Assembly: GCF_030013205.1 (NCBI RefSeq)
Contig: NZ_CP122648.1
Reading direction: 5' to 3' (one strand)
DNA length: 64,000 nt
Source: Escherichia coli
GTDB taxonomy: Bacteria > Pseudomonadota > Gammaproteobacteria > Enterobacterales > Enterobacteriaceae
Made by a program: the position numbers and the translations under genes. The notes beneath the pieces are model-generated. The model did no database searches, was not told the DNA's origin, and saw only the letters and a program-made list of their open reading frames with translations. How positions within the stretch are numbered: the first letter of the stretch is position 1; each line of letters starts with the position of its first letter. Shown one piece after another: positions 20 to 19,824 of the stretch.

Positions 20-3000
20 TTAGTCAAACGGCGGTGGGGCCAGCACTTCACGATTACCGTTGTGCCCCTGTTCGCTGACAATCCCCTGCGCTTCCATCTG
101 TTCGATAATACGCGCTGCACGGTTATAACCAATGCGGAACTGACGCTGTACGCCAGAAATTGATGCTTTGCGTTTTTCAGTGACAAACTGCACCGCCTGA
201 TCGAACAACGGATCCAGCTCTTCAGCGCCATCGAAACCGCCCGCGCCACCTTCGCTTTCGCTGTCGGAGGTGATGCCATCAACATACTGTGGGCGACCAC
301 GCGCTTTCCAGTCCTGCACCACGGCATGAACTTCCTGATCGCGAACAAAAGCACCATGGACACGTACCGGCAACGTGGAGTTCGGCCCAGAGTAGAGCAT
401 ATCCCCCATACCCAGCAGTGATTCCGCACCAGCCTGATCAAGAATGGTACGTGAGTCAATCTTACTGGATACGGTAAAGGCGATACGGGTCGGAATATTC
501 GCTTTAATCAGACCAGTAATAACATCAACCGATGGACGCTGAGTTGCCAGTACGAGGTGGATACCCGCGGCACGGGCTTTTTGCGCCAGACGTGCTATCA
601 GCTCTTCCACTTTTTTACCTACGGTCATCATCAGGTCGGCAAATTCGTCCACCAAAACCACAATGTATGGTTCTTTTTTCAGCACCGGATGCTGGACGTC
701 CATACTGTCACCCGGCTTCCAGTACGGGTCTGGAATCGGACGCATCATGCGATCGGCTTCAGCAATTTTTTCGTTATAACCCGCCAGATTACGCACACCT
801 AGGGCGGACATCAGCTTATAACGACGTTCCATTTCATTTACGCACCAGCGCAAAGCGTTGGCAGCATCTTTCATGTCGGTAACGACTTCCGTTAACAGAT
901 GCGGAATGCCTTCATAAACCGAAAGCTCCAGCATTTTCGGGTCGATCATGATGAAACGCACATCTTCTGGCTGTGCTTTATAAAGCATGCTCAGGATCAT
1001 CGCGTTCACACCGACAGACTTACCGGAACCGGTAGTCCCCGCAACCAACAAGTGCGGCATTTTCGCCAGATCGGCAACCACCGGCTCACCGGCGATATCT
1101 TTACCCAGTACCACGGTTAATGGCGACGGATTATCGCGGAATTTGGCGTTATCCAAAACTTCGCGCAGATATACGGTTTGTCGTTTTTTATTCGGTAACT
1201 CCAGACCTACATAGGGTTTGCCAGGAATAACTTCAACGACACGCACCGCCACCGTCGAAAGTGAACGGGCAAGGTCACGTGACAAGTTAGAAATACGCGC
1301 CGCTTTTACGCCCGGTGCCAGGTTCAATTCAAAGCGAGTGATAACCGGCCCCGGAGAATAATTGACGACATCGGCTTTAATACGGAAATCAGCCAGACGC
1401 GCTTCCACCAGACGCGCCATTTGTTCAAGCGCAAAGGTATCTACCGGCTCCACTTCGCTCGGCGGAGGTGTCAACAAATCCAAAGAAGGCAGCGGCGTCG
1501 TCGGTTTATGCAACGGACGGCTGTCGCCATTACGCATCAACAGCGGATGAAGCAGGGTATCCTGCGGCTGTGGCGCAACTGGCTGTTGTGGCTGCTGATA
1601 CTGCGGCTGCGGTGCAACCGGTTGTTGTGGCTGCTGATACTGCTGCTGCGGCGCAACCGGTTGTTGTGGCTGCTGATACTGCGGCTGCGGTGCAACCGGT
1701 TGTTGCGGCTGCTGATATTGTGGCTGCGGCGCAACCTGCTGTTGTGGCTGCTGATACTGCTGCTGCGGTGCAACCGGTTGTTGCGGCTGCTGTACAGGTT
1801 CAACAATTGGCGTAAACAACGGTTCGTGTGGACCATCATCCAGCAACGCTTTCATTGGCGAAAATTCAAAATCATCCAGCGAGAACGGATTCGCCCCAGC
1901 CGGTTGTTCGCCGGAATAACGTTGTTGTTGAGTTTGCGCAAACTGACGAGCCAGTTCAGCCTCTGCCGCAGCATCTGCATCTTCTGCGTTTACGGGCACA
2001 TCATGTTGATACTGTTCGCCATAGCGTTGCTGCTGTGTCTGGGCGAACTGACGTGCCAGTTCATCCTGCTGCATCGCATCGATTTCATCATCGTTGTACT
2101 GATCGCCAGAATCGTACTGATTGCGCTGGGCTTCACGGGCTTTTTCTTCTGCCGCACGCTGTGAGGGCAGCTTAATACCGTAAGACGCCAATTCACGACG
2201 AGTTGGCACGCGGATACGTTTCGGTCGTGGCAACTGCGGGCCAATCCCCTCTTTGACCTGCGGACGCGGTCCACCGCTATTTGCCAGACTGAAGACTGGC
2301 GCGGCAACGGTTGCGGCAGCCCCCGTCGCCAGTGTCGCTTTTTTCACGCCAGATGCCAGCGGAGAAACAGCGGCAGCGGCTTCTACTGGAGGTACTGCTG
2401 CAACAGAAGGTGCTTTCAGCGAAGATTTGATCGGTTCTGGTTCTTTAACCGGTTCAGGAATCGGTTGATACCAGGCCGCAAGTTGTTCACGTTCACGGGC
2501 ACGCTTCTCTTCCACTTCTTCAAAATAGTAAAGCGGCGGACGCGCGGGTTTTGTCTCTTCTACAACGGGCTCAGGCTCCACAACAGGGTGCTGTTCAACG
2601 GGTTGCGGCTGTTGGTACAACGGCTCCTGAGCGGCTGGCTGCTGATAAGTTTGCTCAGTCTGGTATGTAGACTGTGGAGCAAAAGTGGATTGCTGCTCTT
2701 CGGCTTGCCAGGCGTTACCTGCCGCCGTTTGTTCTGGCGCAGGGGCGTAATACGGCTGTTGCGCAGACTGTTCCGCCGCAGTTGCATAATACGGCTGCTG
2801 AACAGGTTGTTCCGCCGCAGGAGCGTAGTGAGGTTGTTGCACAGGTTGTTCCGCTGCTGGCGCATAATACGGCGGCTGTGGCTGTACAGGTTGTTGCAGC
2901 GGCTCATTATATTGCACTGCAGGCTGCGCATATTGTGGCTGCTGTGGGTAACCTTCCGGTGCCGGAGCAATCACCGGCTCTCCCGTTTGTGGACCCGGTA

Positions 3001-4087
3001 CAGGCTGCCAGGCTACTGTAGGTTGCGAAGGTGGAACATCAACAGAGGCAACAGGCGGCGTCTGAGTCACAGGTTCAACCGGCGCAGCCCAGCTTTGTGT
3101 CGCCGTGGTAGCAGCAGCTGCTACAGCAACAGGTTCGGTAATTGGCGCACCATTTAATAATGGATCGTATTCGTCATATTCTGGCTGCGTTGCACGATTG
3201 CCCGAAAAGAGGACGTCGTCAGGGTCGGCAGCCACACCGCGTGCAGTGTAGGTAATCTCTTCGTCATCATCCATCCGCTTACCGGAGAACAACGCAGCGT
3301 CTGTTTGCCGCCCCATCGGATTAATGAATTTTTCCGCCAACCGTTTACGACGCGCTAACGCGCCGCGAAGAATACGGGCACGGCGTGATTCATGCTGTTT
3401 GCCGTGATTTTCATCTTCATACTCTTCGTCATCTTCATACTCATCTTCATCGACCCAGGTATCATCGCGACGGGTACGATTACTGGCGAAGGTGAGAATG
3501 TTTAAAATCCAGCCGCCGAGTTTTTCAGCAATGGTCACCCATGACCAACCGGTGAACAGCGTCAGACCCGCAGCCCAAACGCAGAGCAGCGCAATAGTTC
3601 CCCCGCTACTGTGTAGCAGTGGTTGTAGCGTAGTGCTTAGTAAGCTGCCAATGACGCCACCGGAGGCAAAATACCAGATATCGTCAGCGTTGATTGCCGC
3701 CAGACCACAGGAGGTAAGGATGAGCGCCAAAACGCCAATGATGCGTAGCGAAACGGCAAAATAATCAATGTATTCGTCGCTGGACTGATGACGCCAGGCA
3801 AACCAACAACCGCCGACAATAATGACGGGAATGGTGTAAGCCATCACGCCAAAAATAAAGAACAGCGTATCTGCCAGCCACGCACCGGGCATCCCACCTA
3901 AATTATGGATAGGTTCATGCCAGGCCGTTTGCGACCAGCTGGGGTCCGAAGGGTTAAAGCTTAGTAAGGCAGCCATCAACCAGACGGCAAACAGGACAAT
4001 AAGGATCAGCAACGCCTCCAGAAGGCGGCGGCCGCTACTTAACTTTGTCAATGTGACTTCTTTGTCTTCAGTGTATTCCTGGCTCAA
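20..4087 (-). CDS. ftsK: DNA translocase FtsK
   Basis: 1355 aa ORF; N-terminal membrane domain, long PQ-rich linker, C-terminal Walker A (GTTGSGKS) motor domain; matches K-12 FtsK from memory. Confidence 0.95.
1565..1800. repeat. In-frame 39 bp tandem repeats in the ftsK linker (13 aa units of the type [13 protein letters not shown])
   Basis: Visible period-39 repetition of ggctgctgatactgcggctgcggtgcaaccggttgttgt and near-copies. Confidence 0.8.
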
Positions 4088-6347: not shown

Positions 6348-8114
6348 ATGAATAAATCCCGTCAAAAAGAGTTAACCCGCTGGTTAAAACAGCAAAGCGT
6401 CATCTCCCAACGTTGGCTGAATATTTCTCGTCTGCTGGGCTTTGTGAGCGGCATATTGATCATTGCCCAAGCCTGGTTCATGGCGCGAATTCTGCAACAT
6501 ATGATTATGGAGAATATTCCCCGTGAAGCCCTGCTGCTTCCCTTTACGTTACTGGTTCTGACCTTTGTACTGCGCGCATGGGTGGTCTGGTTACGCGAAC
6601 GGGTGGGTTATCACGCCGGGCAGCATATCCGCTTTGCCATCCGCCGTCAGGTTCTCGACCGTCTGCAACAAGCAGGGCCAGCGTGGATTCAGGGTAAACC
6701 GGCGGGGAGCTGGGCGACGCTGGTACTCGAGCAAATTGACGATATGCATGATTACTATGCACGCTACCTGCCGCAAATGGCGCTGGCAGTGTCGGTGCCG
6801 TTGCTGATTGTGGTGGCTATCTTCCCCTCTAACTGGGCTGCGGCGCTCATTCTGCTGGGCACTGCTCCGTTAATTCCGTTGTTTATGGCGCTGGTTGGAA
6901 TGGGGGCTGCCGATGCTAACCGACGTAACTTTCTCGCTCTTGCTCGCTTAAGTGGGCATTTTCTCGATCGCCTGCGCGGCATGGAAACATTGCGTATTTT
7001 TGGTCGTGGTGAAGCTGAAATTGAAAGTATTCGTTCTGCTTCGGAAGATTTCCGCCAACGGACAATGGAAGTGCTACGGCTGGCGTTTTTATCCTCCGGC
7101 ATTCTCGAATTTTTTACCTCGCTGTCAATTGCTCTGGTGGCGGTCTACTTTGGTTTTTCCTATCTCGGCGAGCTGGATTTTGGTCACTATGATACTGGCG
7201 TGACGCTGGCTGCGGGTTTTCTGGCCCTGATCCTTGCGCCGGAGTTTTTCCAGCCATTACGCGATCTCGGTACGTTTTATCATGCTAAAGCCCAGGCTGT
7301 TGGCGCAGCTGACAGTCTGAAAACGTTTATGGAAACCCCGCTCGCCCATCCGCAACGTGGTGAGGCGGAATTAGCATCAACCGATCCGGTGACCATTGAA
7401 GCCGAGGATCTGTTTATTACATCACCAGAAGGTAAAACGCTGGCTGGACCGCTGAACTTTACTTTGCCAGCAGGCCAACGTGCAGTGTTGGTTGGTCGCA
7501 GCGGTTCAGGTAAAAGCTCACTGCTGAACGCGCTTTCTGGTTTTCTCTCATATCAGGGATCGCTACGAATCAACGGGATAGAATTACGCGATTTATCACC
7601 GGAATCATGGCGTAAACATCTCTCCTGGGTTGGGCAAAACCCACAATTACCGGCAGCAACACTACGGGATAACGTACTACTGGCACGACCTGATGCCAGC
7701 GAACACGAGTTACAAACAGCGCTGGATAACGCCTGGGTCAGTGAGTTTCTACCGCTCCTGCCACAAGGCGTTGATACGCCTGTTGGCGACCAGGCTGCCC
7801 GCCTTTCCGTGGGGCAGGCACAGCGCGTGGCGGTGGCCCGAGCATTACTAAATCCCTGTTCGCTATTACTGTTGGATGAACCCGCTGCCAGCCTTGATGC
7901 TCACAGTGAACAGCGCGTAATGGAGGCGCTTAATGCCGCCTCTCTGCGCCAGACAACGTTAATGGTCACCCACCAGTTAGAAGATCTTGCTGACTGGGAT
8001 GTCATTTGGGTAATGCAGGATGGTCAGATTATTGAGCAAGGACGTTACGCGGAATTAAGTGTGGCTGGTGGCCCATTCGCCACATTACTGGCCCATCGTC
8101 AGGAGGAGATTTAA
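6348..8114 (+). CDS. cydD: Glutathione/cysteine ABC exporter CydD
   Basis: 588 aa, TMD plus ABC ATPase (GRSGSGKSS, LSVGQAQR). Confidence 0.95.
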   Translation: MNKSRQKELTRWLKQQSVISQRWLNISRLLGFVSGILIIAQAWFMARILQHMIMENIPREALLLPFTLLVLTFVLRAWVVWLRERVGYHAGQHIRFAIRRQVLDRLQQAGPAWIQGKPAGSWATLVLEQIDDMHDYYARYLPQMALAVSVPLLIVVAIFPSNWAAALILLGTAPLIPLFMALVGMGAADANRRNFLALARLSGHFLDRLRGMETLRIFGRGEAEIESIRSASEDFRQRTMEVLRLAFLSSGILEFFTSLSIALVAVYFGFSYLGELDFGHYDTGVTLAAGFLALILAPEFFQPLRDLGTFYHAKAQAVGAADSLKTFMETPLAHPQRGEAELASTDPVTIEAEDLFITSPEGKTLAGPLNFTLPAGQRAVLVGRSGSGKSSLLNALSGFLSYQGSLRINGIELRDLSPESWRKHLSWVGQNPQLPAATLRDNVLLARPDASEHELQTALDNAWVSEFLPLLPQGVDTPVGDQAARLSVGQAQRVAVARALLNPCSLLLLDEPAASLDAHSEQRVMEALNAASLRQTTLMVTHQLEDLADWDVIWVMQDGQIIEQGRYAELSVAGGPFATLLAHRQEEI

Positions 8115-9836
8115 ATGCGCGCTTTGCTACCCTATCTGGCACTGTATAAACGTCATAAATGGATGTTAAGTCTTGGTATTGTGCTGGCAATTGTCACGCT
8201 GCTCGCCAGTATCGGTCTGTTGACACTTTCCGGCTGGTTCCTCTCGGCCTCAGCGGTAGCGGGGGTTGCCGGACTGTACAGCTTCAACTATATGCTACCC
8301 GCTGCGGGCGTGCGTGGTGCAGCAATCACCCGTACTGCCGGGCGCTATTTTGAACGTCTGGTAAGTCACGACGCGACTTTCCGCGTGTTGCAGCATCTGC
8401 GCATTTATACCTTCAGCAAATTGCTGCCCCTCTCCCCTGCAGGACTGGCGCGCTATCGTCAGGGCGAATTGCTCAACCGCGTGGTGGCGGATGTTGATAC
8501 GCTCGATCATCTTTACCTGCGCGTTATCTCGCCGCTGGTGGGCGCTTTTGTGGTGATTATGGTGGTGACAATCGGGTTAAGTTTCCTTGATTTCACCCTC
8601 GCCTTTACGCTGGGCGGCATTATGTTACTGACGCTTTTCCTGATGCCACCACTGTTTTATCGTGCGGGGAAAAGCACCGGGCAAAATCTGACTCATCTTC
8701 GCGGGCAGTATCGCCAACAACTGACGGCCTGGCTGCAAGGGCAAGCTGAGCTGACCATTTTTGGTGCCAGCGATCGTTATCGCACGCAGTTAGAGAATAC
8801 CGAAATTCAGTGGCTGGAAGCGCAACGTCGTCAATCTGAACTCACCGCATTATCGCAAGCGATAATGCTGCTCATTGGCGCGTTAGCGGTGATCCTGATG
8901 CTGTGGATGGCGTCTGGCGGCGTTGGCGGCAATGCTCAACCCGGCGCGTTAATTGCCCTGTTTGTCTTCTGCGCGTTAGCCGCGTTTGAAGCACTGGCAC
9001 CAGTAACGGGTGCATTTCAGCATCTGGGGCAAGTCATTGCCTCTGCCGTACGGATCACTGACTTAACGGTTCAAAAACCGGAAGTCACCTTCCCTGATAC
9101 CCAAACTCGTGTTGCCGATCGCGTTTCGCTGACGTTACGGGATGTTCAATTCACTTATCCGGAGCAATCCCAACAGGCACTTAAAGGGATTTCTCTTCAG
9201 GTAAACGCCGGGGAACATATAGCGATTCTCGGGCGAACCGGATGCGGCAAATCAACACTGTTACAACTGCTGACCCGCGCATGGGACCCGCAACAAGGCA
9301 AGATTTTGCTTAACGATAGCCCCATAGCCAGCCTGAATGAAGCGGCTCTACGACAGACCATCAGCGTTGTTCCTCAGCGAGTGCATCTGTTTAGCGCCAC
9401 GCTGCGTGATAATCTGTTACTCGCCTCACCTGGCAGTAGTGATGAGGCTCTGGCGGAGATCTTGCGTCGCGTTGGTCTGGAGAAGCTGCTCGAGGATGCA
9501 GGTCTCAACAGTTGGTTGGGTGAAGGCGGACGCCAGCTCTCCGGTGGTGAACTGCGCCGTCTGGCTATCGCCCGTGCGCTGTTACATGATGCGCCGCTGG
9601 TATTGCTGGATGAACCTACAGAAGGCTTAGATGCCACAACCGAAAGTCAGATCCTTGAATTGCTTGCAGAAATGATGCGTGAGAAAACGGTGTTAATGGT
9701 CACCCATCGACTTCGCGGACTCTCTCGTTTCCAACAAATAATAGTGATGGACAACGGGCAAATTATTGAGCAAGGTACTCACGCAGAACTGCTTGCCAGA
9801 CAGGGGCGTTATTACCAGTTCAAGCAGGGTTTGTAA
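8115..9836 (+). CDS. cydC: Glutathione/cysteine ABC exporter CydC
   Basis: 573 aa, TMD plus ABC ATPase (GRTGCGKST, LSGGELRR); start abuts cydD stop. Confidence 0.95.
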   Translation: MRALLPYLALYKRHKWMLSLGIVLAIVTLLASIGLLTLSGWFLSASAVAGVAGLYSFNYMLPAAGVRGAAITRTAGRYFERLVSHDATFRVLQHLRIYTFSKLLPLSPAGLARYRQGELLNRVVADVDTLDHLYLRVISPLVGAFVVIMVVTIGLSFLDFTLAFTLGGIMLLTLFLMPPLFYRAGKSTGQNLTHLRGQYRQQLTAWLQGQAELTIFGASDRYRTQLENTEIQWLEAQRRQSELTALSQAIMLLIGALAVILMLWMASGGVGGNAQPGALIALFVFCALAAFEALAPVTGAFQHLGQVIASAVRITDLTVQKPEVTFPDTQTRVADRVSLTLRDVQFTYPEQSQQALKGISLQVNAGEHIAILGRTGCGKSTLLQLLTRAWDPQQGKILLNDSPIASLNEAALRQTISVVPQRVHLFSATLRDNLLLASPGSSDEALAEILRRVGLEKLLEDAGLNSWLGEGGRQLSGGELRRLAIARALLHDAPLVLLDEPTEGLDATTESQILELLAEMMREKTVLMVTHRLRGLSRFQQIIVMDNGQIIEQGTHAELLARQGRYYQFKQGL

Positions 9837-9877: not shown

Positions 9878-10582
9878 ATGCGCCTGGTTCAGCTTTCTCG
9901 CCATTCAATAGCCTTCCCTTCCCCGGAAGGCGCATTACGTGAGCCTAACGGCCTGCTGGCACTGGGGGGCGATCTTAGCCCTGCGCGCCTGTTAATGGCT
10001 TACCAGCGTGGTATTTTTCCGTGGTTTTCTCCAGGTGACCCCATCCTCTGGTGGTCGCCCGATCCTCGCGCGGTGCTTTGGCCTGAATCACTGCATATCA
10101 GCCGTAGTATGAAGCGATTTCATAAACGCTCGCCCTATCGTGTCACGATGAATTACGCTTTTGGTCAGGTCATTGAAGGCTGTGCCAGCGATCGCGAAGA
10201 AGGAACCTGGATCACGCGTGGCGTGGTCGAAGCCTACCATCGCCTTCACGAACTCGGTCATGCCCACTCTATTGAAGTCTGGCGTGAAGATGAGCTTGTC
10301 GGCGGTATGTACGGCGTGGCCCAGGGAACGCTATTTTGTGGCGAGTCCATGTTCAGCCGGATGGAAAATGCGTCTAAAACGGCGCTTCTGGTATTCTGTG
10401 AGGAATTTATTGGTCATGGCGGTAAACTTATCGACTGCCAGGTCCTTAACGATCACACAGCGTCGCTTGGTGCCTGCGAAATTCCCCGCCGGGATTACCT
10501 CAATTATCTCAATCAAATGCGCCTCGGACGATTGCCGAATAATTTCTGGGTACCACGGTGCTTGTTTTCACCACAAGAATGA
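9878..10582 (+). CDS. aat: Leucyl/phenylalanyl-tRNA--protein transferase
   Basis: 234 aa; matches K-12 Aat. Confidence 0.9.
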
Positions 10583-10863
10583 ATGTTTTCGGCACATTTC
10601 TCCCCAGAGTGTTATAATTGCGGTCGCAGAGTTGGTTACGCTCATTACCCCGCTGCCGATAAGGAATTTTTCGCGTCAGGTAACGCCCATCGTTTATCTC
10701 ACCGCTCCCTTATACGTTGCGCTTTTGGTGCGGCTTAGCCGTGTGTTTTCGGAGTAATGTGCCGAACCTGTTTGTTGCGATTTAGCGCGCAAATCTTTAC
10801 TTATTTACAGAACTTCGGCATTATCTTGCCGGTTCAAATTACGGTAGTGATACCCCAGAGGAT

Positions 10864-11085
<222 letters not shown>

Positions 11086-11338
11086 TTGTTTTACCGCCTG
11101 ATGGGCGAAGAGAAAGAACGAGTAAAAGGTCGGTTTAACCGGCCTTTTTATTTTGTGATATGTATGAAGTACTTTGGAAGTATAAGTCCATAACTTGTCT
11201 CGATGTAGATATACTGCACAACTTGTTTACAGTATGAGCAAACAATAATTATCATTAAAATTCTTCTTGACCGTTTTACTCCAACTCCCTATAGTAGCGC
11301 CCCGTTGCCACCCATGAGGTTTGGTAGCAAAACAATTT

Positions 11339-11426
11339 GGTGAGGTGTCCGAGTGGCTGAAGGAGCACGCCTGGAAAGTGTGTATACGGCAACGTATCGG
11401 GGGTTCGAATCCCCCCCTCACCGCCA
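11339..11426 (+). tRNA. serW: tRNA-Ser (anticodon GGA)
   Basis: GGTGAGGTGTCCGAGTGGCTGAAGG...CCTGGAAAGTG...GGGTTCGAATCCCCCCCTCACCGCCA; long variable arm; anticodon loop CU-GGA-AA. Confidence 0.9.
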
Positions 11427-11588
11427 TATTCAAAGAAGAGCTCGTACGAAAGTAGGGGCTTTTTTTTCGCATATTGCACACACCGGGGGGATGAGAAGCC
11501 CCGACCGGGGTTCGACAACTGGCGCAGCCAGTTGGACAGACCACGAACACAGTGAGTGGGCTGCCCGCAGGGCGAGCGAAGCGAGTCA

Positions 11589-11611
11589 ATCCCCCCCTCA
11601 CCGCCATATTT
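11589..11611 (+). repeat. Direct repeat of the last ~23 nt of serW plus flanking TATT (aatccccccctcaccgccatatt)
   Basis: Near-identical copy of 11404-11430 located ~185 bp downstream; each copy is followed by a related A-rich/ctcgtacgaaagta segment. Confidence 0.8.
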
Positions 11612-11617
11612 AAAGAA

Positions 11618-11647
11618 AAACTCGTACGAAAGTACGAGTTTTTTTTC
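11618..11647 (+). terminator. Rho-independent terminator-like hairpin (ctcgtac-gaaa-gtacgag followed by T8)
   Basis: Perfect 7 bp stem, 4 nt loop, U-run; a degenerate copy sits at 11432-11458. Confidence 0.6.
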
Positions 11648-11889
11648 GCATTTTATCTGCCTGTACGGCAGTGAACTCAAATACTACACGTTTAGTCCGT
11701 TATTAATAAAGCAAAACCATCTCATTTTCCTGCTACCACCCTTTTTTATCCTTACCTTCCCGCAGCACTAATTATCAACAACTTACCATCATCATCAAAA
11801 AAAGGGTCTGAACCTCCTCCACCCCATAAACAAAAAGTCCGTAACCTCTTTCGAGATTACGGACTTCACCAACCTACCTGACAATTAGA

Positions 11890-14166
11890 TTAATGCGCTG
11901 CTTCCGCCTTGTGCTTTTGTGCACTCTGGAATCCGTAAGTCAGCTCATTTTTCTCTTTATCCAGCGCGACGGTGACCTGACCGCCGTCCACCAGCGAACC
12001 AAACAACAGTTCGTTGGCGAGCGGTTTTTTCAGGTTGTCCTGGATGACACGCGCCATCGGACGTGCGCCCATTGCCCGGTCGTAACCTTTCTCGGCTAGC
12101 CAGTTACGCGCTTCCTGGCTCACTTCCAGAGAAACACCTTTCTGATCCAACTGAACCTGCAACTCGACGATGAATTTATCCACTACCTGATGGATCACGT
12201 CGGTTGACAGATGATCGAACCAGATAATGTTGTCGAGACGGTTACGAAACTCCGGCGTAAAGATCTTCTTGATCTCTTCCATCGCATCGGTGCTGTTGTC
12301 CTGGTGGATAAGACCAATCGATTTACGCTCAGTTTCTCGTACCCCAGCGTTGGTGGTCATCACCAATACCACGTTACGGAAGTCCGCTTTGCGTCCGTTG
12401 TTATCGGTCAGCGTACCGTTGTCCATCACCTGCAACAGAATATTGAACACGTCCGGGTGCGCTTTCTCGATTTCGTCCAGCAGCAGCACCGCATGTGGAT
12501 GCTTGATGACCGCATCAGTCAGCAAACCGCCCTGATCAAAACCAACGTATCCCGGAGGCGCACCAATCAGACGGCTGACGGTATGGCGTTCCATATACTC
12601 GGACATATCAAAGCGCAGAAGCTCAATGCCCAAAGCTTTCGAAAGCTGTAGCGTCACCTCTGTTTTCCCGACCCCGGTAGGGCCGGCAAACAGGAACGAA
12701 CCGACCGGTTTATGTTCGTGACCTAAACCTGCACGCGCCATCTTAATGGCTTCAGTCAGCGCCTCGATGGCTTTATCCTGACCGAAGACCAGCATTTTCA
12801 GGCGATCGCCGAGGTTTTTCAGGGTATCGCGGTCACTCTGAGAAACACTCTTCTCTGGAATGCGCGCAATACGGGCCACCACGGACTCAATATCCGCCAC
12901 ATTAACGGTTTTCTTGCGTTTGCTTACCGGCATCAGGCGTGCGCGAGCGCCCGCTTCGTCGATAACGTCAATGGCTTTATCCGGCAGATGACGATCGTTA
13001 ATGTATTTCACCGCCAGCTCTACCGCTGCACGCACCGCTTTTGCGGTATAACGCACGTCGTGGTGCGCTTCATACTTCGGTTTCAGGCCATTGATGATTT
13101 GAACAGTTTCTTCGATCGACGGTTCAGTAATATCAATTTTCTGGAAGCGACGCGCCAGAGCACGGTCTTTCTCGAAAATGTTGCTGAACTCCTGATAGGT
13201 TGTCGAACCAATTACGCGAATTTTACCGCTGGAGAGCAACGGTTTGATTAGGTTAGCCGCATCGACCTGACCACCAGACGCTGCACCCGCACCGATAATG
13301 GTGTGGATCTCATCAATAAACAGGATGCTGTTAGTGTCCTGCTCCAGCTGCTTGAGCAACGCTTTAAAACGTTTTTCAAAGTCGCCGCGATATTTTGTGC
13401 CCGCTAACAGAGAACCGATATCGAGAGAGTAAATCGTACAGTCAGCCATCACTTCCGGCACATCGCCCTGAACAATTCGCCAGGCAAGACCTTCTGCAAT
13501 CGCGGTTTTACCGACACCAGATTCCCCCACCAGCAGCGGGTTGTTTTTACGGCGACGGCAGAGAACCTGAATAGCACGCTCCAGCTCCTTCTCACGACCA
13601 ATCAGTGGGTCGATTCCGCCCACGCGCGCAAGCTGATTCAGGTTCGTCGTGAAATTCTCCATACGTTCCTCCCCACCAGCTTGTTCTTCGCTGTTTGGCT
13701 GGCTGCCAGGATCAGAAGACTGTGTCGGCTCGTCTTTACGCGTGCCATGAGAGATAAAGTTCACCACATCGAGACGGCTGACTTCATGTTTACGCAACAG
13801 ATATGCCGCCTGCGACTCCTGTTCGCTAAAGATAGCGACCAGAACGTTTGCACCGGTAACCTCATTGCGACCGGAGGACTGGACATGGAAGACCGCACGT
13901 TGCAGTACACGCTGAAAACTCAGCGTCGGCTGTGTGTCGCGCTCCTCTTCACTGGCAGGCAGAACAGGTGTGGTTTGTTCAATAAAGGCTTCCAGTTCCT
14001 GACGGAGCGCAACCAAATCCACAGAACACGCTTCCAGCGCCTCCCGGGCAGATGGGTTACTGAGCAGCGCCAGTAACAAGTGCTCGACGGTCATAAACTC
14101 ATGACGGTGCTCGCGCGCTCTGGCGAAAGCCATATTTAAACTGAGTTCCAGTTCTTGATTGAGCAT
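11890..14166 (-). CDS. clpA: ATP-dependent Clp protease ATP-binding subunit ClpA
   Basis: 758 aa from [24 protein letters not shown]; two AAA+ modules ([16 protein letters not shown]). Confidence 0.95.
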
Positions 14167-14603: not shown

Positions 14604-14622
14604 GATAGATAACTATCATTTA
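14604..14622. repeat. Putative attL core (gatagataactatcattta)
   Basis: 17/19 identical to 25213-25231. Confidence 0.5.
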
Positions 14623-14691
14623 TATCATTTAGTTAATTAGTCTTTATTTTTCATTATGTTGCAAATAACAACCCCGTCAAAAACAGTGATA

Positions 14692-14714
14692 TTAACTACA
14701 CCATTAACTACACC
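14692..14714. promoter_or_regulatory. Putative integrase arm-type sites (ttaactacaccattaactacacc) followed by cgaacaa repeats
   Basis: Tandem 11-mer direct repeat; a near-identical copy lies at 25069-25091 just upstream of the int start. Confidence 0.45.
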
Positions 14715-15303
14715 GCTTCACGAACAATATCGAACAACCGCGAACAAAGATCAACACGCTTTAATCATTATCATTTTCCGGCTATCCGTCATGAAGCTGG
14801 TGGATGATCTGCGTGGTGATTTCCACCATTCAGAGCAGGGGCGGTCATCATGACCATGCCATAACAAAAACCCCATATTCGTGGTTTTTCTGTGTCGGGG
14901 CTATTCTGCTGTTGCCGTGCTGGTGGATATTCTCCGGTATGCGGCTCCCCATATCGGCATCAGGCCCACCAGCGTGAAGCGTTTTTCATTTTTCGCGGGT
15001 ATAAAAAATCGATGGGGCGGGCAGTCCTGAAGACGTCAGGGTACGGAGATTTGACCCGCCCCTCCCTGTGCATGAGCACAATAAGTAACCGAAGGCGGAA
15101 TTCCGCCCTCGGTACTTACATATGAGAAACGATATTTCTTCCACCGATACCCTTTATTTGGGTATTGCGAGTAAGCCCCAAAATCTGGGTGTTACTCTTA
15201 CTACCCAAACTACGGGTAGTTTCCGTAGTTTCATGGTCGAGTTGCAAATCTGCAACTCACCCACCAGCCAACGCAATTTTGCGTTATCGGGAATATCAGC
15301 AAG

Positions 15304-15591
15304 TTACCGCCGCAGTCGTTCCGGCTTCTTCCACTGGTAAGTATTTTTCGCGCTCTCCCTCCGTTGTTGAGAACGGCGACGGTATGCCAGCAACTCAAGG
15401 ACTCTGGTTCGTATGTTGCGCATATCCACGCCGTTAAGCTCAATACCATCACGGCGCATCACCTCAGCAACAACACGCGCGTAATTTTCAGCGGTGACTG
15501 TATCCGGCTGCGCGGCCTGTTCGTCAGCCAACTGGCTGATTCCACCAGCACAGCGGATTAATCGCAGTATTTCAGATTCGGTCATTATCAT
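15304..15591 (-). CDS. Hypothetical protein (95 aa), island packaging module
   Basis: ORF overlaps the terS-like stop by 4 nt; no recognisable motif. Confidence 0.45.
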   Translation of the reverse strand: MIMTESEILRLIRCAGGISQLADEQAAQPDTVTAENYARVVAEVMRRDGIELNGVDMRNIRTRVLELLAYRRRSQQRRESAKNTYQWKKPERLRR

Positions 15592-16073
15592 GCCTGTTTT
15601 GCGACCTCATTCACTACGTCATTTTTTACCATCCGGCTGATAATCTGATTACACAAATCGTCAATAATTGACTGCACTCTGTTTACTGCCATCGGTTTAA
15701 GCCCGGCATCACGTGCCAGAATATTGGGGAGTTTTGCCAGTTCCTCGCTTACGATTTCCCCCCATATAGCCATCTCTTTTCGCACATCATCGGCGGGTAT
15801 GAGTTGCGCCGTTTCCTGTTCGAACTTGAGGCGTTCACGTTCGGACTGATACCAGGCCTTACGGTCTTGTGGCTCCATTTCTTCCAGTGATGCCGGAACG
15901 GGAAGATCAAGAAAACAGGTCAGAATGTCAGTCACCCGATAGAGTTTCAGCTTGTCATGCCCTCCGGCTGGCTGGATGTTTTTCAGCCTTGCCGCCGCAG
16001 TCTGACGACATATTCCCGCTATCGCCGCCAGTTGATTAATGTTCAGCATCAGATTTTTCAGTTCTCGATCCAT
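15588..16073 (-). CDS. Phage small terminase-like protein (Nu1-like HTH DNA-packaging protein)
   Basis: Start placed at MDRELKNLM (GGAGCGGGT SD); N-terminal HTH LNINQLAAIAGICRQTAAARL; layout resembles lambda Nu1. Confidence 0.55.
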   Translation of the reverse strand: MDRELKNLMLNINQLAAIAGICRQTAAARLKNIQPAGGHDKLKLYRVTDILTCFLDLPVPASLEEMEPQDRKAWYQSERERLKFEQETAQLIPADDVRKEMAIWGEIVSEELAKLPNILARDAGLKPMAVNRVQSIIDDLCNQIISRMVKNDVVNEVAKQA

Positions 16074-16226
16074 ACCCGCTCCAGAATGTTTTAAACATGC
16101 ATCTTGCGAACAACTTTCAGAAGAGGTCAAAAAATGCGCTATATGTTGAGCATAAAACAAGCAAAATTAACATGCCAAAAATAAAAATACTTAAAATTCA
16201 ATACAATATGAAGATGATGATGACGA

Positions 16227-16306
16227 ATGAAAATGCAAAAACTAGCCTTTTTCCGCGCCGCTCCCGCCCCGTGGCAGACCACTCCACCGGGAGGACCCGT
16301 AAAAAA
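16227..16306. repeat. 80 bp conserved element, copy 1 (~92% identical to 18761-18840)
   Basis: atgaaaatgcaaaaac..ccgggaggacccgtaaaaaag; lies between the capsid terminator and terS. Confidence 0.8.
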
Positions 16307-16324
16307 GGCGGCTGTCGCCGCCCT
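16299..16324 (-). terminator. Rho-independent terminator after the protease-capsid gene
   Basis: Minus strand ggcggcgacagccgcc followed by ttttttta. Confidence 0.6.
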
Positions 16325-16329
16325 TGTTG

Positions 16330-18243
16330 TCATGCTCCACTCGATTTCAGTAATCCGCGATAATCGAGGGCCGCGACACCTGCATCTATGCGCACTTTCC
16401 AGGCGACACCATCAACAGTAAAGCCCACCTGCTCCTCAAGATATGGCGTATCCATACCATCAAGATAAGCGACTTCTATTGTGTCCATCCCCTTAGCTGC
16501 GGCTACATACCATTCCTTGCTATTGGCCTTATCAAGACGTGGCTCAACAATTACTTCTGCCATATCTTTCACCACGTTAATGATGCCGGGGTTCTGATTG
16601 ATAGTGCTCTCATCACCAACCGGAAAGACTGATGACGATGACAGAATGGCGCGACGCGCGGCAGATTCCAGCGCGGCAGGGACCAGAACAAAAGCAGGGG
16701 TAATATTCAGTGAGTCGCCGTTAGCATCCTCCTGGAGGCGCATCAGCTTACGGGCTTCATCAAGCCCCACCATGTCCATATCCTTCGCAATAAGATTTTT
16801 ATGATCGGCATGGAATAACGCTTTACCATCCGTAAATTTGCCGTTGCTGGTTAACAGAAGATAAACCAGATTACCTACTGTTCTGGCGGCCGCACGCCCC
16901 ATCGCCATGGGGATTGTAGTTAACTGGGTCAGGTCATCGTTGATAATGGCCTGACGGGTAACAGAAAAAATATTACCGTATGTGGCCAGCGCAATAGGTA
17001 CACCTTTATCGCTGGTGGTGATGTATTTATATTCCGCACCTTCCGGTACTTTATCCAGCTTTGAAAAACCATTCAGACCAACGCGCTTTGCTTCATGAAA
17101 GTTTGAAAGCGATCCGGTACGCGTCCATTTCTGGAACGTTTCGCCGCTGTCCTGCCAGCCTTTCAGCACTGATTTTTCAGCACCACCAGCCAGAATATGA
17201 GAAAAATCGCTGCTGCTGTGTGTGAAAGCTGCATTAACGACCTGCGAGCGATTTAAAAAACTGCCAACACTGATACCACGATCAGTTAGTGATGCCTGGG
17301 CCATTTCAAAAAGGCTCATCATCGCGTAAGGATTTCCCCGCTCTGGGCGTTCATACCCAAGACGAGAATAAAGCCCCTGACGAATTGCATCGCCTGTTAT
17401 GTTCCCGTTACCGGCATAAATATGAGTCGGGATATTTTTATTGGATGGCGTGGACTCGCGCCCCAGCTCGTTCAACAACTTTTCACGGGCCATCTCCGGT
17501 GTACATGATGCATCCTCCAGGCACGCCATTTTGATCCCGTCGTAACGACTGCCGAACAGGCTAAACACTTCACTTATTCCGTTGATGCGCTTCTGTTCAT
17601 TACCAGCAATATTGGCTGCTCCCTGTGGCGGGGTAATCATTCCTTTAATGGTTTCAGGCATGTGTGAAAAATCTCCTGTGCGTTTCGATTCAATTCGCGC
17701 CATTGCTGTGACAGATGGCAACAATTCATCAGCAAAACCGTGCTTAAGGCATTCTTTCCCGTCCATCCAGGTTTCATCTTCCAGCATGGCGGTAATTTCC
17801 TGTGCTGATTTGCCCGTTTTTCTGGCATAAGCAGGGACTAACACGGTTTCCACCTTATCCAGCAAATCAGCATAATCACGCATATCACCAGCATTTCCGC
17901 CAGAGATACCCCACGGCTTATGTATCATCATCATGGCGTTTTCCGGCATCACAACACGATCGCCAGCCATTGCGACAACCGAAGCCATTGAAGCCGCAAC
18001 ACCATCGATATAAACCGTAATTTCTGCCGGATGATTCCGTAACAGGTTATAGATGGCGATGCCTTCAAACACGTCACCACCTGGCGAATGGATCCGCAGG
18101 TCGATATGTGAGACATCGCCCAGGGCTTTCAGGTCTTCCGCAAACTGCTTCGCGGTAATACCGAAGCCGCCAATTTCTTCATAGATGGATATTTCTGCCG
18201 CTCCGCGAACACCCAGCGCCTTAATGGTGTACCAGTGATTCAT
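16330..18243 (-). CDS. Fused prohead protease (ClpP-like) / major capsid protein
   Basis: 637 aa; N-terminal ~200 aa with ClpP-like serine-protease motif (IHSPGGDV); C-terminal ~430 aa of major-capsid size and character. Confidence 0.7.
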   Translation of the reverse strand: MNHWYTIKALGVRGAAEISIYEEIGGFGITAKQFAEDLKALGDVSHIDLRIHSPGGDVFEGIAIYNLLRNHPAEITVYIDGVAASMASVVAMAGDRVVMPENAMMMIHKPWGISGGNAGDMRDYADLLDKVETVLVPAYARKTGKSAQEITAMLEDETWMDGKECLKHGFADELLPSVTAMARIESKRTGDFSHMPETIKGMITPPQGAANIAGNEQKRINGISEVFSLFGSRYDGIKMACLEDASCTPEMAREKLLNELGRESTPSNKNIPTHIYAGNGNITGDAIRQGLYSRLGYERPERGNPYAMMSLFEMAQASLTDRGISVGSFLNRSQVVNAAFTHSSSDFSHILAGGAEKSVLKGWQDSGETFQKWTRTGSLSNFHEAKRVGLNGFSKLDKVPEGAEYKYITTSDKGVPIALATYGNIFSVTRQAIINDDLTQLTTIPMAMGRAAARTVGNLVYLLLTSNGKFTDGKALFHADHKNLIAKDMDMVGLDEARKLMRLQEDANGDSLNITPAFVLVPAALESAARRAILSSSSVFPVGDESTINQNPGIINVVKDMAEVIVEPRLDKANSKEWYVAAAKGMDTIEVAYLDGMDTPYLEEQVGFTVDGVAWKVRIDAGVAALDYRGLLKSSGA

Positions 18244-18449
18244 TGCTCCCCCCCAGATGCAAAACCATTCTTATCAAGCCACGCGTTAACCGCGTGTCTG
18301 ACAATCTGCGCCGCACCTGGTAATGGTTGGTCAGGATGATGATTTATGTGGTCGATCCTGTACTGCTTAAGGCGCATAACGGTCTGCGCATCCAGATGAA
18401 CGGAACCACCTTTTACCTCGCCTGTGTTCAGGTCGTTAATACAATTCAC
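18240..18449 (-). CDS. Hypothetical small protein (69 aa), translationally coupled to the capsid gene
   Basis: GTG start with AAGAGGAAG SD; stop overlaps the capsid ATG. Confidence 0.5.
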   Translation of the reverse strand: MNCINDLNTGEVKGGSVHLDAQTVMRLKQYRIDHINHHPDQPLPGAAQIVRHAVNAWLDKNGFASGGEQ

Positions 18450-18549
18450 AGTAACTTCCTCTTACTGACTAAACTGCGCGCATTATTGATCGATAAAAGT
18501 GGTAGATAAACATATTTCTATCATAAAAATAGATTAATCAGATTCAGAC

Positions 18550-18575
18550 ACAAAAAAGCCGGAGAGAATCCGGCA
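18550..18575 (-). terminator. Rho-independent terminator-like hairpin (gccggattctctccggc followed by T6)
   Basis: Minus-strand stem-loop plus U-run ~100 nt upstream of the 69 aa ORF. Confidence 0.55.
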
Positions 18576-18760
18576 TAAATATCCCGCCATCTGAACACGT
18601 TTTGCACAGGCAACTCCATCTGGCAGGTGAAAAACAAATTTATTTATATATTTCAATTAATTGCAAACTGGTCTAATGACAGGGAGAAAAAAATATTGTA
18701 CAGGTGAAAACAGAAATAACTTTTAATTATCAATAAATTACTACACATGCTGCCGCCGCC

Positions 18761-18840
18761 ATGAAAATGCAAAAACCAGCCTTTTTCCGCGACGCTCCCG
18801 CCCCGTGGCAGGTCACTACACCGGGAGGACCCATAAAAAA
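18761..18840. repeat. 80 bp conserved element, copy 2
   Basis: ~92% identical to 16227-16306. Confidence 0.8.
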
Positions 18841-18858
18841 GCCGGATTGCTCCGGCTT
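18833..18858 (-). terminator. Rho-independent terminator after the SSB-like gene
   Basis: Minus strand gccggagcaatccggc followed by ttttttat. Confidence 0.6.
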
Positions 18859-18872
18859 CTGTTACTCGTTGC

Positions 18873-19295
18873 TTAAAACGGTATGTTATCCCCGTACGGA
18901 TCATCATTTCCCGCCTGTTGTTTTGCTCTGCTCAGTGCATCAGTAGCCTGCCCCTGTTGGCCTTTTTTGCCGCCCGGTCGCGCCGTTCTCGCACTGATTA
19001 CGCTGTCTGCGATAACCTGCCAGCCCTGCCGCGTCTCCCCGTTCTGTCCGGTCCACTGGCTCACCTGCATGTTACCCGCCACGCTCAGGAGTTCACCCTT
19101 GCGGTGCTTTGCCAGTGCTTCGGCCTGTCTGCCAAACGCCAGGACGGATAACCACATCGTCGCCGTTCCGTCATCTGCCTGGCTGCACGGAAGTGGGACC
19201 GCCATACTCGCCATCGTCATTTGTGTACCCTTGCTGGTGGTCTTTAACTGCGGGTCAGCCACCAGCCGCCCGTAAGCCGCTATCTGTGCTGTCAT
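18873..19295 (-). CDS. Single-stranded DNA-binding protein-like
   Basis: 140 aa; OB-fold-like N-terminus (GRLVADPQLK...), Gly/Gln-rich tail ending DDPYGDNIPF, resembling the SSB acidic tip DDDIPF. Confidence 0.65.
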   Translation of the reverse strand: MTAQIAAYGRLVADPQLKTTSKGTQMTMASMAVPLPCSQADDGTATMWLSVLAFGRQAEALAKHRKGELLSVAGNMQVSQWTGQNGETRQGWQVIADSVISARTARPGGKKGQQGQATDALSRAKQQAGNDDPYGDNIPF

Positions 19296-19537
19296 GCTGT
19301 CTGCTCTCCGGTTTTAACGTTGATGGTTGTCACCTGTTCCGCTTCGGCAATCTCCCGTTCTGTCAGCGTGGCAAAGTTTGCAGCTGCCGTTGTCATGAAT
19401 GAGCTAATCAGTTCGGGATGTGCTTTCGCATATCCTTCCCCGGCGTTGCGGTCGATGATTTTTATCGACACCCTTAACCAGTGTTCCGTCAAATCAAGGG
19501 CGTGCGATTGTGATTTTTTTGTGTGCTTCGCTGTCAT
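19292..19537 (-). CDS. Hypothetical protein (81 aa)
   Basis: ORF between the ori and the SSB-like gene; overlaps the ssb start by 4 nt. Confidence 0.45.
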   Translation of the reverse strand: MTAKHTKKSQSHALDLTEHWLRVSIKIIDRNAGEGYAKAHPELISSFMTTAAANFATLTEREIAEAEQVTTINVKTGEQTA

Positions 19538-19584
19538 AGGCTTTATCTCACAGCAGTAAATTAAAATTTTTGCGTTTTAACCCT

Positions 19585-19812
19585 TCACCTGTTCACCTTT
19601 TGATATTTTATCTTTTAATTCATAATGTTAAGGGGTGAACAGTTTCACAAAAACTATTCACCAACTGTTCACCACTGTTCACCCTTGAAGCTCAATAAAC
19701 AATCAAAAAGGTGAACAGTGAATAGTTTGGTGAACAGTTCATAAATAACTGTTCACCCTATAACATACTGATACAAAAGATATTTATGACAGGGTGAACA
19801 GTGGTGAACAGT
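19585..19812. promoter_or_regulatory. Putative replication origin: iteron cluster (at least 9 copies of GTGAACAG/CTGTTCAC) in AT-rich DNA
   Basis: Repeats at about 19587, 19634, 19665, 19676, 19710, 19729, 19750, 19794, 19803 in both orientations, immediately 3' of the primase gene. Confidence 0.65.
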
Positions 19813-19824
19813 TATTCCATAAGT

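Follow-up and report, generated by a model that had tools for sequence, protein, structure and literature searches.

Two cohesive-end (cos) sites within one phage-inducible chromosomal island (PICI) have been described for EcCICFT073, whose sites have lambda-like cosQ and cosN sequences and divergent cosB sequences (Fillol-Salom et al. 2018 ISME J, PMC6092414; 2019 Mol Cell, PMC6739421). According to the same papers both sites work when cloned, cos1 is required for transfer, and the Rpp protein of the island retargets the small terminase subunit (TerS) of the helper phage to the private cosB. For SaPIbov4, too, two putative cos sites have been reported (cited in PMC6092414), and a study of helper-embedded PICIs (HE-PICIs) described a 258-bp segment at the cos position that is 90% identical between PICI and helper (PMC10111431). 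Here we analysed a 64,000-nucleotide stretch of an Escherichia coli contig (NZ_CP122648.1, assembly GCF_030013205.1; hereafter the window) in which an 80-bp element is present in two copies within a small integrated island. We conclude that both copies are very probably the cores (cosQ, cosN and the start of cosB) of lambda-type cos sites in a PICI, and we call them cos1 (copy 1) and cos2 (copy 2; Table 1). Two cos sites in such islands are thus already published; the window island is a different version of the same kind, it is not a new kind of system, and the picture of PICI packaging is unchanged.

Like EcCICFT073, the island has a backbone of int, alpA, DUF4222, primase, single-stranded DNA-binding protein (SSB), capsid genes and a 93-aa open reading frame (ORF). 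It also shares with it two cos sites of phage-like cosQ and cosN and divergent cosB, and a terminator abutting the cos upstream of the packaging-specificity gene. The cohesive end of EcCICFT073, however, is that of lambda, GGGCGGCGACCT, whereas that of the window island is GGGCGGGAGCG(G/T). When we located the EcCICFT073 sites, cos1 lay upstream of rppA and cos2, inverted, downstream of rppA, and there was no cos after SSB; the window sites are instead in direct orientation, 2,534 bp apart, and flank a capsid cassette. Finally, EcCICFT073 has Rpp and no TerS, whereas the window island encodes a full TerS homologue. EcCIIHE3034 is catalogued with the same attachment (att) core, ATGATAGTTAT, and the same cspD-clpS site as the window island (PMC6092414, supplementary table), and its integrase is 94% identical. 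It also shows the same succession of SSB terminator, complete helper-type cos, capsid cassette, terminator, second cos and terS. It differs in its packaging module, which consists of a lambda-E-like capsid protein with a decoration protein and a Nu1-like TerS, and in its cos sites: the one after SSB is of the VT1-Sakai type (GGGCGGGAGGCG), the one before terS is of the lambda type, and a third, inverted, is again of the lambda type. The cos-like sites of EcCIIHE3034 (L008 in our collection, NC_017628.1) lie at 7028-7074 (+), 9470-9517 (+) and 10361-10409 (-, downstream of its terS). SaPIbov5 and SaPIbov4 are, from the literature, also satellites with the cos of their helper and a capsid-protein homologue, but their sequences are unrelated, their hosts Gram-positive and their terminase system HNH-dependent.

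The duplicated element and lambda-type cos sites

A repeat search of the window returned a single two-copy direct-repeat family (16227-16320 and 18761-18854), with 88% identity between the copies across 94 nt and about 92% across the first 80, in agreement with the two ~92% identical 80-bp copies of the preliminary description. Only these two places in the window matched the 31-nt consensus of the element, and none of 100 shuffled sequences contained any match. The six substitutions that separate the copies, also as described before, spare cosQ and 11 of the 12 cohesive-end positions; the remaining one, position 12 (G/T), varies in phages too.

Read on the minus strand, each copy shows the cosQ heptamer GGGTCCT and then the nick context ACG-GGGCGGGAGCG(G/T)-CGCGG (hyphens delimit the cohesive end). 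At both sites 22 nt separate cosQ from the cohesive end, which is the register of lambda. In an alignment with the lambda genome-end junction, the element reads ...TTTACGGGTCCTCCCGGTGGAGTGGTCTGCCACG-GGGCGGGAGCGG-CGCGGAAAAAGG... across the nick, and lambda reads ...TTTACGGGTCCTTTCCGGTGATCCGACAGGTTACG-GGGCGGCGACCT-CGCGGGTTTTCG... Element and lambda have in common the cosQ heptamer, the ACG and CGCGG on either side of the nick sites, and the six bases with which the 12-nt cohesive end begins (ACG-GGGCGG...-CGCGG), and the two window sites match lambda cos in 49/82 and 52/82 aligned columns. As in lambda, a cos of this form stands just upstream of a small terminase gene. In contrast, only 7-8 of the 12 cohesive-end bases are shared with lambda, cosB is unrelated, and the island TerS belongs to the DUF1441 family whereas that of lambda is Nu1. 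Lambda-type cosQ, cosN and cosB were found at both sites, cosB being recognised by its sequence, with TerS binding predicted.

The position of the predicted nick is also that of phage genome ends. Two independent records, those of phages cdtI (NC_009514) and Tritos (OV696610), start with GGGCGGGAGCGT, a start that falls on window position 18803 (minus strand), and the end of the cdtI record, ...GGGTCCTTCCGGTGGGGTGGCCTGCCACG (...CCACG), coincides exactly with the predicted nick. A comparison of 83 distinct sequences of this cos type showed conservation in a block from about -7 to +43 around the nick, beyond which the sequences fall into discrete cosB types.

Outside the island the element is widespread. 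About 2,560 of 5,426 complete E. coli genomes contain it (blastn with copy 1), chiefly in lambdoid prophages directly upstream of terS, so that it is not specific to the island. Matches to copy 1 were also found in 36 phage records, including mEp460, phi458, Stx phages, VT1-Sakai and Fels-1; its place in the three phages inspected (mEp460, phi458 and VT1-Sakai) is between the lysis genes and terS, 110-150 nt ahead of the latter. The preliminary description had considered that the repeat might be a common one unrelated to the island: it is indeed common, but the copies elsewhere are the cos sites of a prophage group. It is the similarity to lambda, the match to phage genome ends and the position upstream of terS, taken together, that lead us to read the copies as cos cores. 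This also agrees with the earlier opinion that the element is a non-coding DNA signal and not a peptide. When 100,044 species-representative genomes were scanned for this type of cos, one match was obtained, in a Bryobacterales metagenome-assembled genome (MAG), and no taxonomic breadth can be derived from it. This sole match (L134; JAEUQE010000042.1, 2043-2083) lies on a phage-sized contig of 46,115 bp in a MAG assigned to Acidobacteria, and is probably a mis-binned or contaminating lambdoid phage.

Two cosB types, the island TerS and the abutting terminators

Beyond the shared core the two sites have different affinities. Along 223 nt, from cosQ through the entire cosB to the start of cdtI terS, cos2 and the cdtI cos share 94.2% identity, and in this cos2 resembles the cos of cdtI, Tritos and HannyBb; blastn against phages gave 93.5% identity over 168 nt. 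This cosB contains two direct TTTTCACCTG-containing repeats around an A+T-rich stretch (plus-strand positions 18624-18662 and 18701-18739, 77 nt apart), which are candidate TerS-binding (R) elements. Unlike the cdtI-type phages, the island has no terS after cos2: the homology ends at a degenerate terS start (ATG changed to GTG) and a terminator stands in place of the gene. In E. coli, cdtI-type cosB is found in the prophage form, followed by a DUF1441 terS, in about 730 genomes and in the island form in 157.

The cosB of cos1 is of another type. Its best match among 50,697 phage records is only 75.8% identical, whereas it is 86-100% identical among satellites. The core of cos1 is about 90% identical to mEp460 and phi458, and the whole cos1 region about 80%; the 184 nt that precede the island terS are homologous to the sequence ahead of terS in these two phages. 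The island TerS shows 65-66% amino-acid identity to the TerS of phi458 and mEp460, so that the island differs from all phages in the collection in both elements (cos1 cosB at most 76% at the nucleotide level, TerS at most 66% at the amino-acid level). The N-terminal 60 residues of this protein, presumed to bind DNA, are 70% identical to phi458/mEp460 TerS versus 18% to cdtI TerS. Because this N terminus resembles the mEp460 type and not cdtI, the island TerS would be expected to read cos1 and not cos2, and cos2 would need the TerS of a cdtI-type helper.

The cassette between the two sites encodes a 69-aa protein and a fusion of a ClpP-like prohead protease with the major capsid protein. The fusion is only 55-57% identical in amino-acid sequence to every phage homologue, cdtI included, and this points to an old satellite lineage of the cassette, while cos2 has been kept phage-like. 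A recent capture of the cassette from cdtI along with cos2 was rejected on the basis of the same 55-57% identity. We also considered the 69-aa ORF as a gpW-like head-tail adaptor, as in cdtI and mEp460, and rejected this since no similarity to gp03 of cdtI or gp03 of mEp460 was detected at E 1e-3. In the identical region of strain EC13, PGAP calls a 57-aa plus-strand hypothetical protein (18336-18509 in window coordinates) over this ORF, a probable strand mis-annotation in RefSeq.

Both sites directly follow strong intrinsic terminators. The U-run of the terminator closing the SSB gene (18835-18840) leads directly into cosQ of cos2, and that of the terminator closing the capsid gene (16301-16306) into cosQ of cos1. 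The preliminary description had each copy adjoining a terminator and a third terminator after copy 2, and all three were located by scan and folding. We then applied a uniform definition, a hairpin with dG of -7 or lower and a T-run of at least 5 directly against cosQ, to the cos sites collected. Such a terminator was present at 33 of 39 satellite cos sites, and at none of the 50 phage sites or of the 46 unclassified sites, so that the window island differs in this respect from lambda as well as from the surveyed phages; among the six satellite exceptions one (in L094) is the helper prophage's own cos. The SSB hairpin also precedes the post-SSB cos of EcCIIHE3034 and of IMG/VR satellites, and EcCICFT073 cos1 is likewise abutted by a terminator. 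In the satellites the sequence of the hairpin varies between islands and its structure is retained. A terminator against cosQ is therefore a general trait of satellites. These terminators may close the preceding operons and shield cos from transcription, or may place the downstream capsid and terS genes under the control of regulated read-through.

For the family survey we scanned IMG/VR with an exact pattern for this cos type and obtained 120 loci. Of these, 15 have at least two cos sites; all 15 are satellites, and most lie on contigs of ~10-12 kb. Two co-oriented cos sites flank a capsid cassette in at least 13 of the 15: primase/SSB is followed by a terminator and cos(a), then by the 69-aa ORF, the capsid gene(s), another terminator and cos(b), and finally by TerS, if present, and the 93-aa ORF. 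This order is kept although the integrases are 22-100% and the primases 47-100% identical to those of the window. A cdtI-type cosB (90-96% identical) without terS is present at 14 satellite cos(a) sites, and the private cosB followed by the satellite TerS at 15 cos(b) sites. Different cos types are mixed in EcCIIHE3034, as described above, with GGGCGGGAGGCG and GGGCGGCGACCT as cohesive ends, and also in locus L126. Since ends with different cohesive sequences could not anneal, this mixture argues for an alternative use of the cos sites within an island, by different terminases or helpers, rather than a joint one. One IMG/VR satellite (L094), with an integrase only 22% identical to that of the window, lies about 7 kb from a complete cdtI-type cos with a terS 100% identical to cdtI TerS (168-3675 versus 10530-11250), and may represent the helper-embedded type of PICI reported in PMC10111431.

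Two loci of the survey, L081 and L102, are near-identical relatives of the window island (integrase 98%, primase 100%, SSB 100%, TerS 98%) that lack the 2.5-kb cassette and have a single cos. This cos is a hybrid: its left half has all four cos2-specific variants, its right half both cos1-specific ones, and the crossover falls in a 19-nt block that contains the nick. Homologous recombination between the two repeats would be expected to give such a hybrid, and so would packaging initiated at cos1 and terminated at cos2. Hybrid sites were located at 6290-6600 in L081, at ~991 in L102 and at 3007185-3008355 in E. coli NZ_AP027844.1. The cassette-less form occurs in 3 of 5,426 E. coli genomes versus about 150-157 with two cos sites, and because of this rarity we regard the two-cos form as the maintained state.

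A packaging model and its alternatives

Altogether, we consider it highly probable that the window contains two lambda-type cos sites in a PICI dependent on lambdoid helpers of the cdtI/mEp460/Stx group. By analogy with the PICI family, helper induction would lead to excision of the island, replication from the origin beside the primase gene and formation of concatemers. A terminase containing the large subunit of the helper would then nick cosN at ACG-GGGCGGGAGCG(G/T)-CGCGG and leave 12-nt 5' cohesive ends, packaging would proceed toward lower window coordinates, and cosQ would act in termination at the next usable cos. In this scheme cos1 (16074-16306), with its private cosB beside the island TerS, would probably be read by that protein together with the large terminase subunit (TerL) of the helper. 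In turn cos2 (18596-18840), a near-exact cdtI-type cos without terS, would probably be read by the TerS of a cdtI-type helper. Together the two sites would most likely broaden the range of helpers or terminases able to package the island, which is the purpose we infer for having two. The terminators would be operon ends that also block upstream transcription across cos, in an arrangement specific to satellites. Among the mechanisms considered, use of both sites by TerS proteins of different specificity has the best support, and we give it about an even chance.

More tentatively, and with less than even probability, the arrangement may represent a dual-cos design, in which a helper-identical cos without terS and a private cos read by the satellite TerS bracket a diverged capsid cassette, the fusion of terminator and cosQ being a satellite adaptation. 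If so, the island could enter helper capsids by either of two independent routes, or would have two ranges of helpers. Now and then, packaging that runs from cos1 to cos2 would yield 8.1-kb capsid-less derivatives with a hybrid cos, and the fusion would either shield cos from transcription or put the capsid and terS operons under antitermination.

Several points weigh against this general picture. The cdtI and Tritos records may have been made to begin where they do on the model of lambda, and not on the basis of sequenced ends, and a literature search for the cohesive ends of cdtI found nothing. Terminase cleavage and packaging at the island sites are predictions, as is the pairing of TerS with cosB, which is drawn solely from sequence divergence. 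Deletion of cos2 in EcCICFT073 raised transfer, so that a second cos is not necessarily beneficial (PMC6092414, PMC6739421), and in the window cos2 adjoins a degenerate terS start, as a recombination relic would.

The main alternative takes up the last two points: cos2 would be the non-functional relic of a cdtI-like left arm (cos, terS, terL, ..., capsid) that recombined into the island and has since been mostly deleted, so that a dead cos was left beside the captured capsid genes, and only cos1 would be used. The end of the cdtI homology at the degenerate terS start, with a terminator in place of the gene, fits this idea, as do the phage origin of the capsid cassette and the fact that one cos of EcCICFT073 is dispensable and its deletion increases transfer. 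However, cosQ and cosN are intact in all 14 satellite cdtI-type copies, across differing integrases and primases, and the cosB of the cos2 type is 90-96% identical to phage while the adjacent capsid protein is at ~56%. In addition, derivatives without cos2 are rare (3 genomes versus ~150), and both EcCICFT073 sites are functional when cloned. We thus regard a relic as unlikely, although it is the alternative that has to be taken most seriously.

Another possibility is that the repeats serve mainly as recombination substrates for gain and loss of the 2.5-kb cassette, with packaging using only one of them. L081, L102 and 1-3 E. coli genomes, without the cassette and with a single hybrid cos (cos2 on the left, cos1 on the right), are what this would produce, but packaging that starts at cos1 and ends at cos2 would yield the same hybrid, and the crossover lies within the 19-nt block holding the nick. 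Such recombination is moreover a consequence of having two cos sites and not an alternative identity for them, and we judge this explanation to be quite improbable.

The preliminary description had proposed that copy 2 begins a stand-alone small RNA (sRNA) unit at 18576-18832, and the corresponding explanation is that the element is the promoter or 5' part of this sRNA and recurs ahead of the terS operon. In its favour, there is a terminator on either side of the region, an A+T-rich stretch lies downstream, and there is one promoter-like site in the cosB of cos1 (16178-16149). No Rfam family matched the element at gathering thresholds in the whole window, and with permissive E-values only chance-level matches overlapped it in 15900-19900. 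The two copies, folded on both strands, had no structure in common and gave unremarkable z-scores (minus strand, -0.8 and -2.1; plus strand, +0.2 and -1.3), and a scan for sigma-70-like consensus sequences gave no promoter in or beside copy 2. Of promoter, terminator and conserved structure or family, copy 2 thus shows the terminator alone. In contrast, the entire unit is homologous to the left end of cdtI, that is, to the cohesive end and cosB up to the terS start codon, and conservation centres on the nick site and on no helix. The sRNA proposal is therefore not supported, and we regard it as very improbable.

Least probable of all, to the point of being negligible, is that the repeats encode a short plus-strand peptide, MKMQK..., antisense to island genes: an ATG-initiated ORF does open in both copies and the frame stays open over 27 codons in 116 of 127 related copies, but beyond the cos core the copies are no longer similar and their ORFs have unrelated tails, 12 copies have lost the start (IKMQK...), stops occur in 11 of 127, the cdtI frame reads ATG GAA ATG TAA, all six differences in the window are non-synonymous, and no ribosome-binding site is evident. 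Two minus-strand ORFs cross the element (16139-16333 and 18653-18907); the repeat is translated in a different frame in each, and they were rejected as a conserved protein.

With the copies read as cos sites, the speculative satellite sRNA gives way to a concrete annotation of two packaging sites with cleavage predicted to the base. The two-cos phenomenon, experimentally shown for EcCICFT073 only, is extended to a second group, characterised by a non-lambda cohesive end, a satellite TerS and a helper-identical cos. Phages of the cdtI/Tritos/HannyBb and mEp460/phi458 types, some of which carry cdt or stx toxin genes, are pointed to as likely helpers. For genome annotation, cosQ-N22-cosN and, in satellites only, a terminator abutting cosQ provide usable rules. 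Specialists may find of interest the conserved pairing of a helper-identical with a private cos, the satellite-specific fusion of terminator and cosQ, and the natural hybrid-cos derivative.

The host island and its surroundings

Table 1. Features of the island in window coordinates.
Feature	Position	Strand	Description and basis
Whole satellite (PICI)	14609-25228	-	10.6 kb; att core search; EC13 annotation of the 100%-identical region
Island TerS	15588-16073	-	161 aa, DUF1441 family; phrog_141 'terminase small subunit', E 3e-56
cosB of cos1	16074-16257	-	Satellite-private type, 184 nt between cohesive end and island terS start codon
cos1 conserved core (copy 1)	16227-16306	-	cosQ 16292-16298, ACG, cohesive end GGGCGGGAGCGG 16258-16269, proximal conserved block
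Terminator closing capsid gene	16307-16322	-	Intrinsic, hairpin GGCGGCGACAGCCGCC+U6; dG -16.2 kcal/mol, z -4.5
Capsid cassette	16330-18449	-	Between the cos sites; PHROG matches; PGAP annotation of identical islands
Protease/capsid fusion	16330-18243	-	637 aa, ClpP-like prohead protease/major capsid protein; PHROG; PGAP
69-aa ORF	18240-18449	-	phrog_4934, function unknown, E 5e-30; good ribosome-binding site, overlaps capsid gene start
Terminator downstream of cos2	18558-18574	-	Intrinsic, in place of phage terS; terminator scan; dG -10.6 kcal/mol, z -3.5
cosB of cos2	18596-18791	-	cdtI type; repeats and homology to cdtI
cos2 conserved core (copy 2)	18761-18840	-	cosQ 18826-18832, spacer, ACG, 12-nt cohesive end GGGCGGGAGCGT 18792-18803, proximal block CGCGGAAAAAGGCTGGTTTTTGCATTTTCAT
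Terminator closing SSB gene	18841-18856	-	Intrinsic, hairpin GCCGGAGCAAUCCGGC+U6; dG -15.4 kcal/mol, z -6.0
Iterons	19589-19826		Dense direct and inverted TGTTCACC / GGTGAACAG, between primase gene and 81-aa ORF; repeat search
Primase gene	19825-21657	-	Annotation
alpA-like gene	23177-23386	-	69-aa helix-turn-helix protein; phrog_2790 (PHROG profiles)
Integrase gene int	23806-25053	-	PGAP annotation of identical islands

The island is flanked by direct repeats of the att core ATGATAGTTAT at 14609-14619 and 25218-25228, between cspD and clpS. All its genes are on the minus strand, where the order is int, alpA-like gene, primase gene, iteron origin, SSB, cos2, capsid cassette, cos1, terS and 93-aa ORF. 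Several E. coli strains, EC13 among them, carry this region in their chromosomes with 100% identity, and PGAP annotates in it, on one strand and between clpS and cspD, a tyrosine integrase, a helix-turn-helix regulator, an Icd-like protein, a DUF4222 protein, a DNA primase, SSB, the protease/capsid fusion and a DUF1441 protein. The iteron block is presumably the replication origin of the island, and the same block was found in the related IMG/VR satellites L026 and L071. Of phage morphogenesis genes the island contains only those for the protease/capsid fusion and TerS, and neither annotation nor PHROG profiles revealed TerL, portal, tail or lysis genes in it. We thus find a small att-bounded element with an integrase, the int-alpA-primase order with an origin, and few phage structural genes. 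An att core and site like those of EcCIIHE3034, the iterons beside the primase gene and this gene content therefore identify the host element as a 10.6-kb Gram-negative PICI, and give substance to the helper-dependent island of the preliminary description; helper-induced excision, replication and transfer are predicted by analogy. About 3% of complete E. coli genomes have this version of the island.

Some observations concern the remainder of the island and of the window. An intact 302-aa ORF at 22258-23166 (-) matches the phage transcriptional-repressor family phrog_6196 over its C-terminal ~90 residues; PGAP labels its EC13 counterpart an incomplete 'ash family' pseudogene. Beyond the tRNA-Ser(GGA) gene serW (11339-11426), a 59-nt stretch made up of the 3' end of the gene and downstream sequence occurs a second time (11408-11466 and 11588-11646, 90% identical). 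This looks like a tRNA 3'-end duplication and is possibly an old att scar; a borderline Rfam RtT match lies at 11471-11606. Where the window has serW, EC13 has a type I-F CRISPR-Cas locus, and Tandem Repeats Finder, run on 11000-11900 as a check on the CRISPR annotation of EC13, found nothing. Finally, a canonical RybB sRNA (Rfam RF00110, 104 bits) lies at 62240-62318 (+), in an ordinary chromosomal context unrelated to the island.

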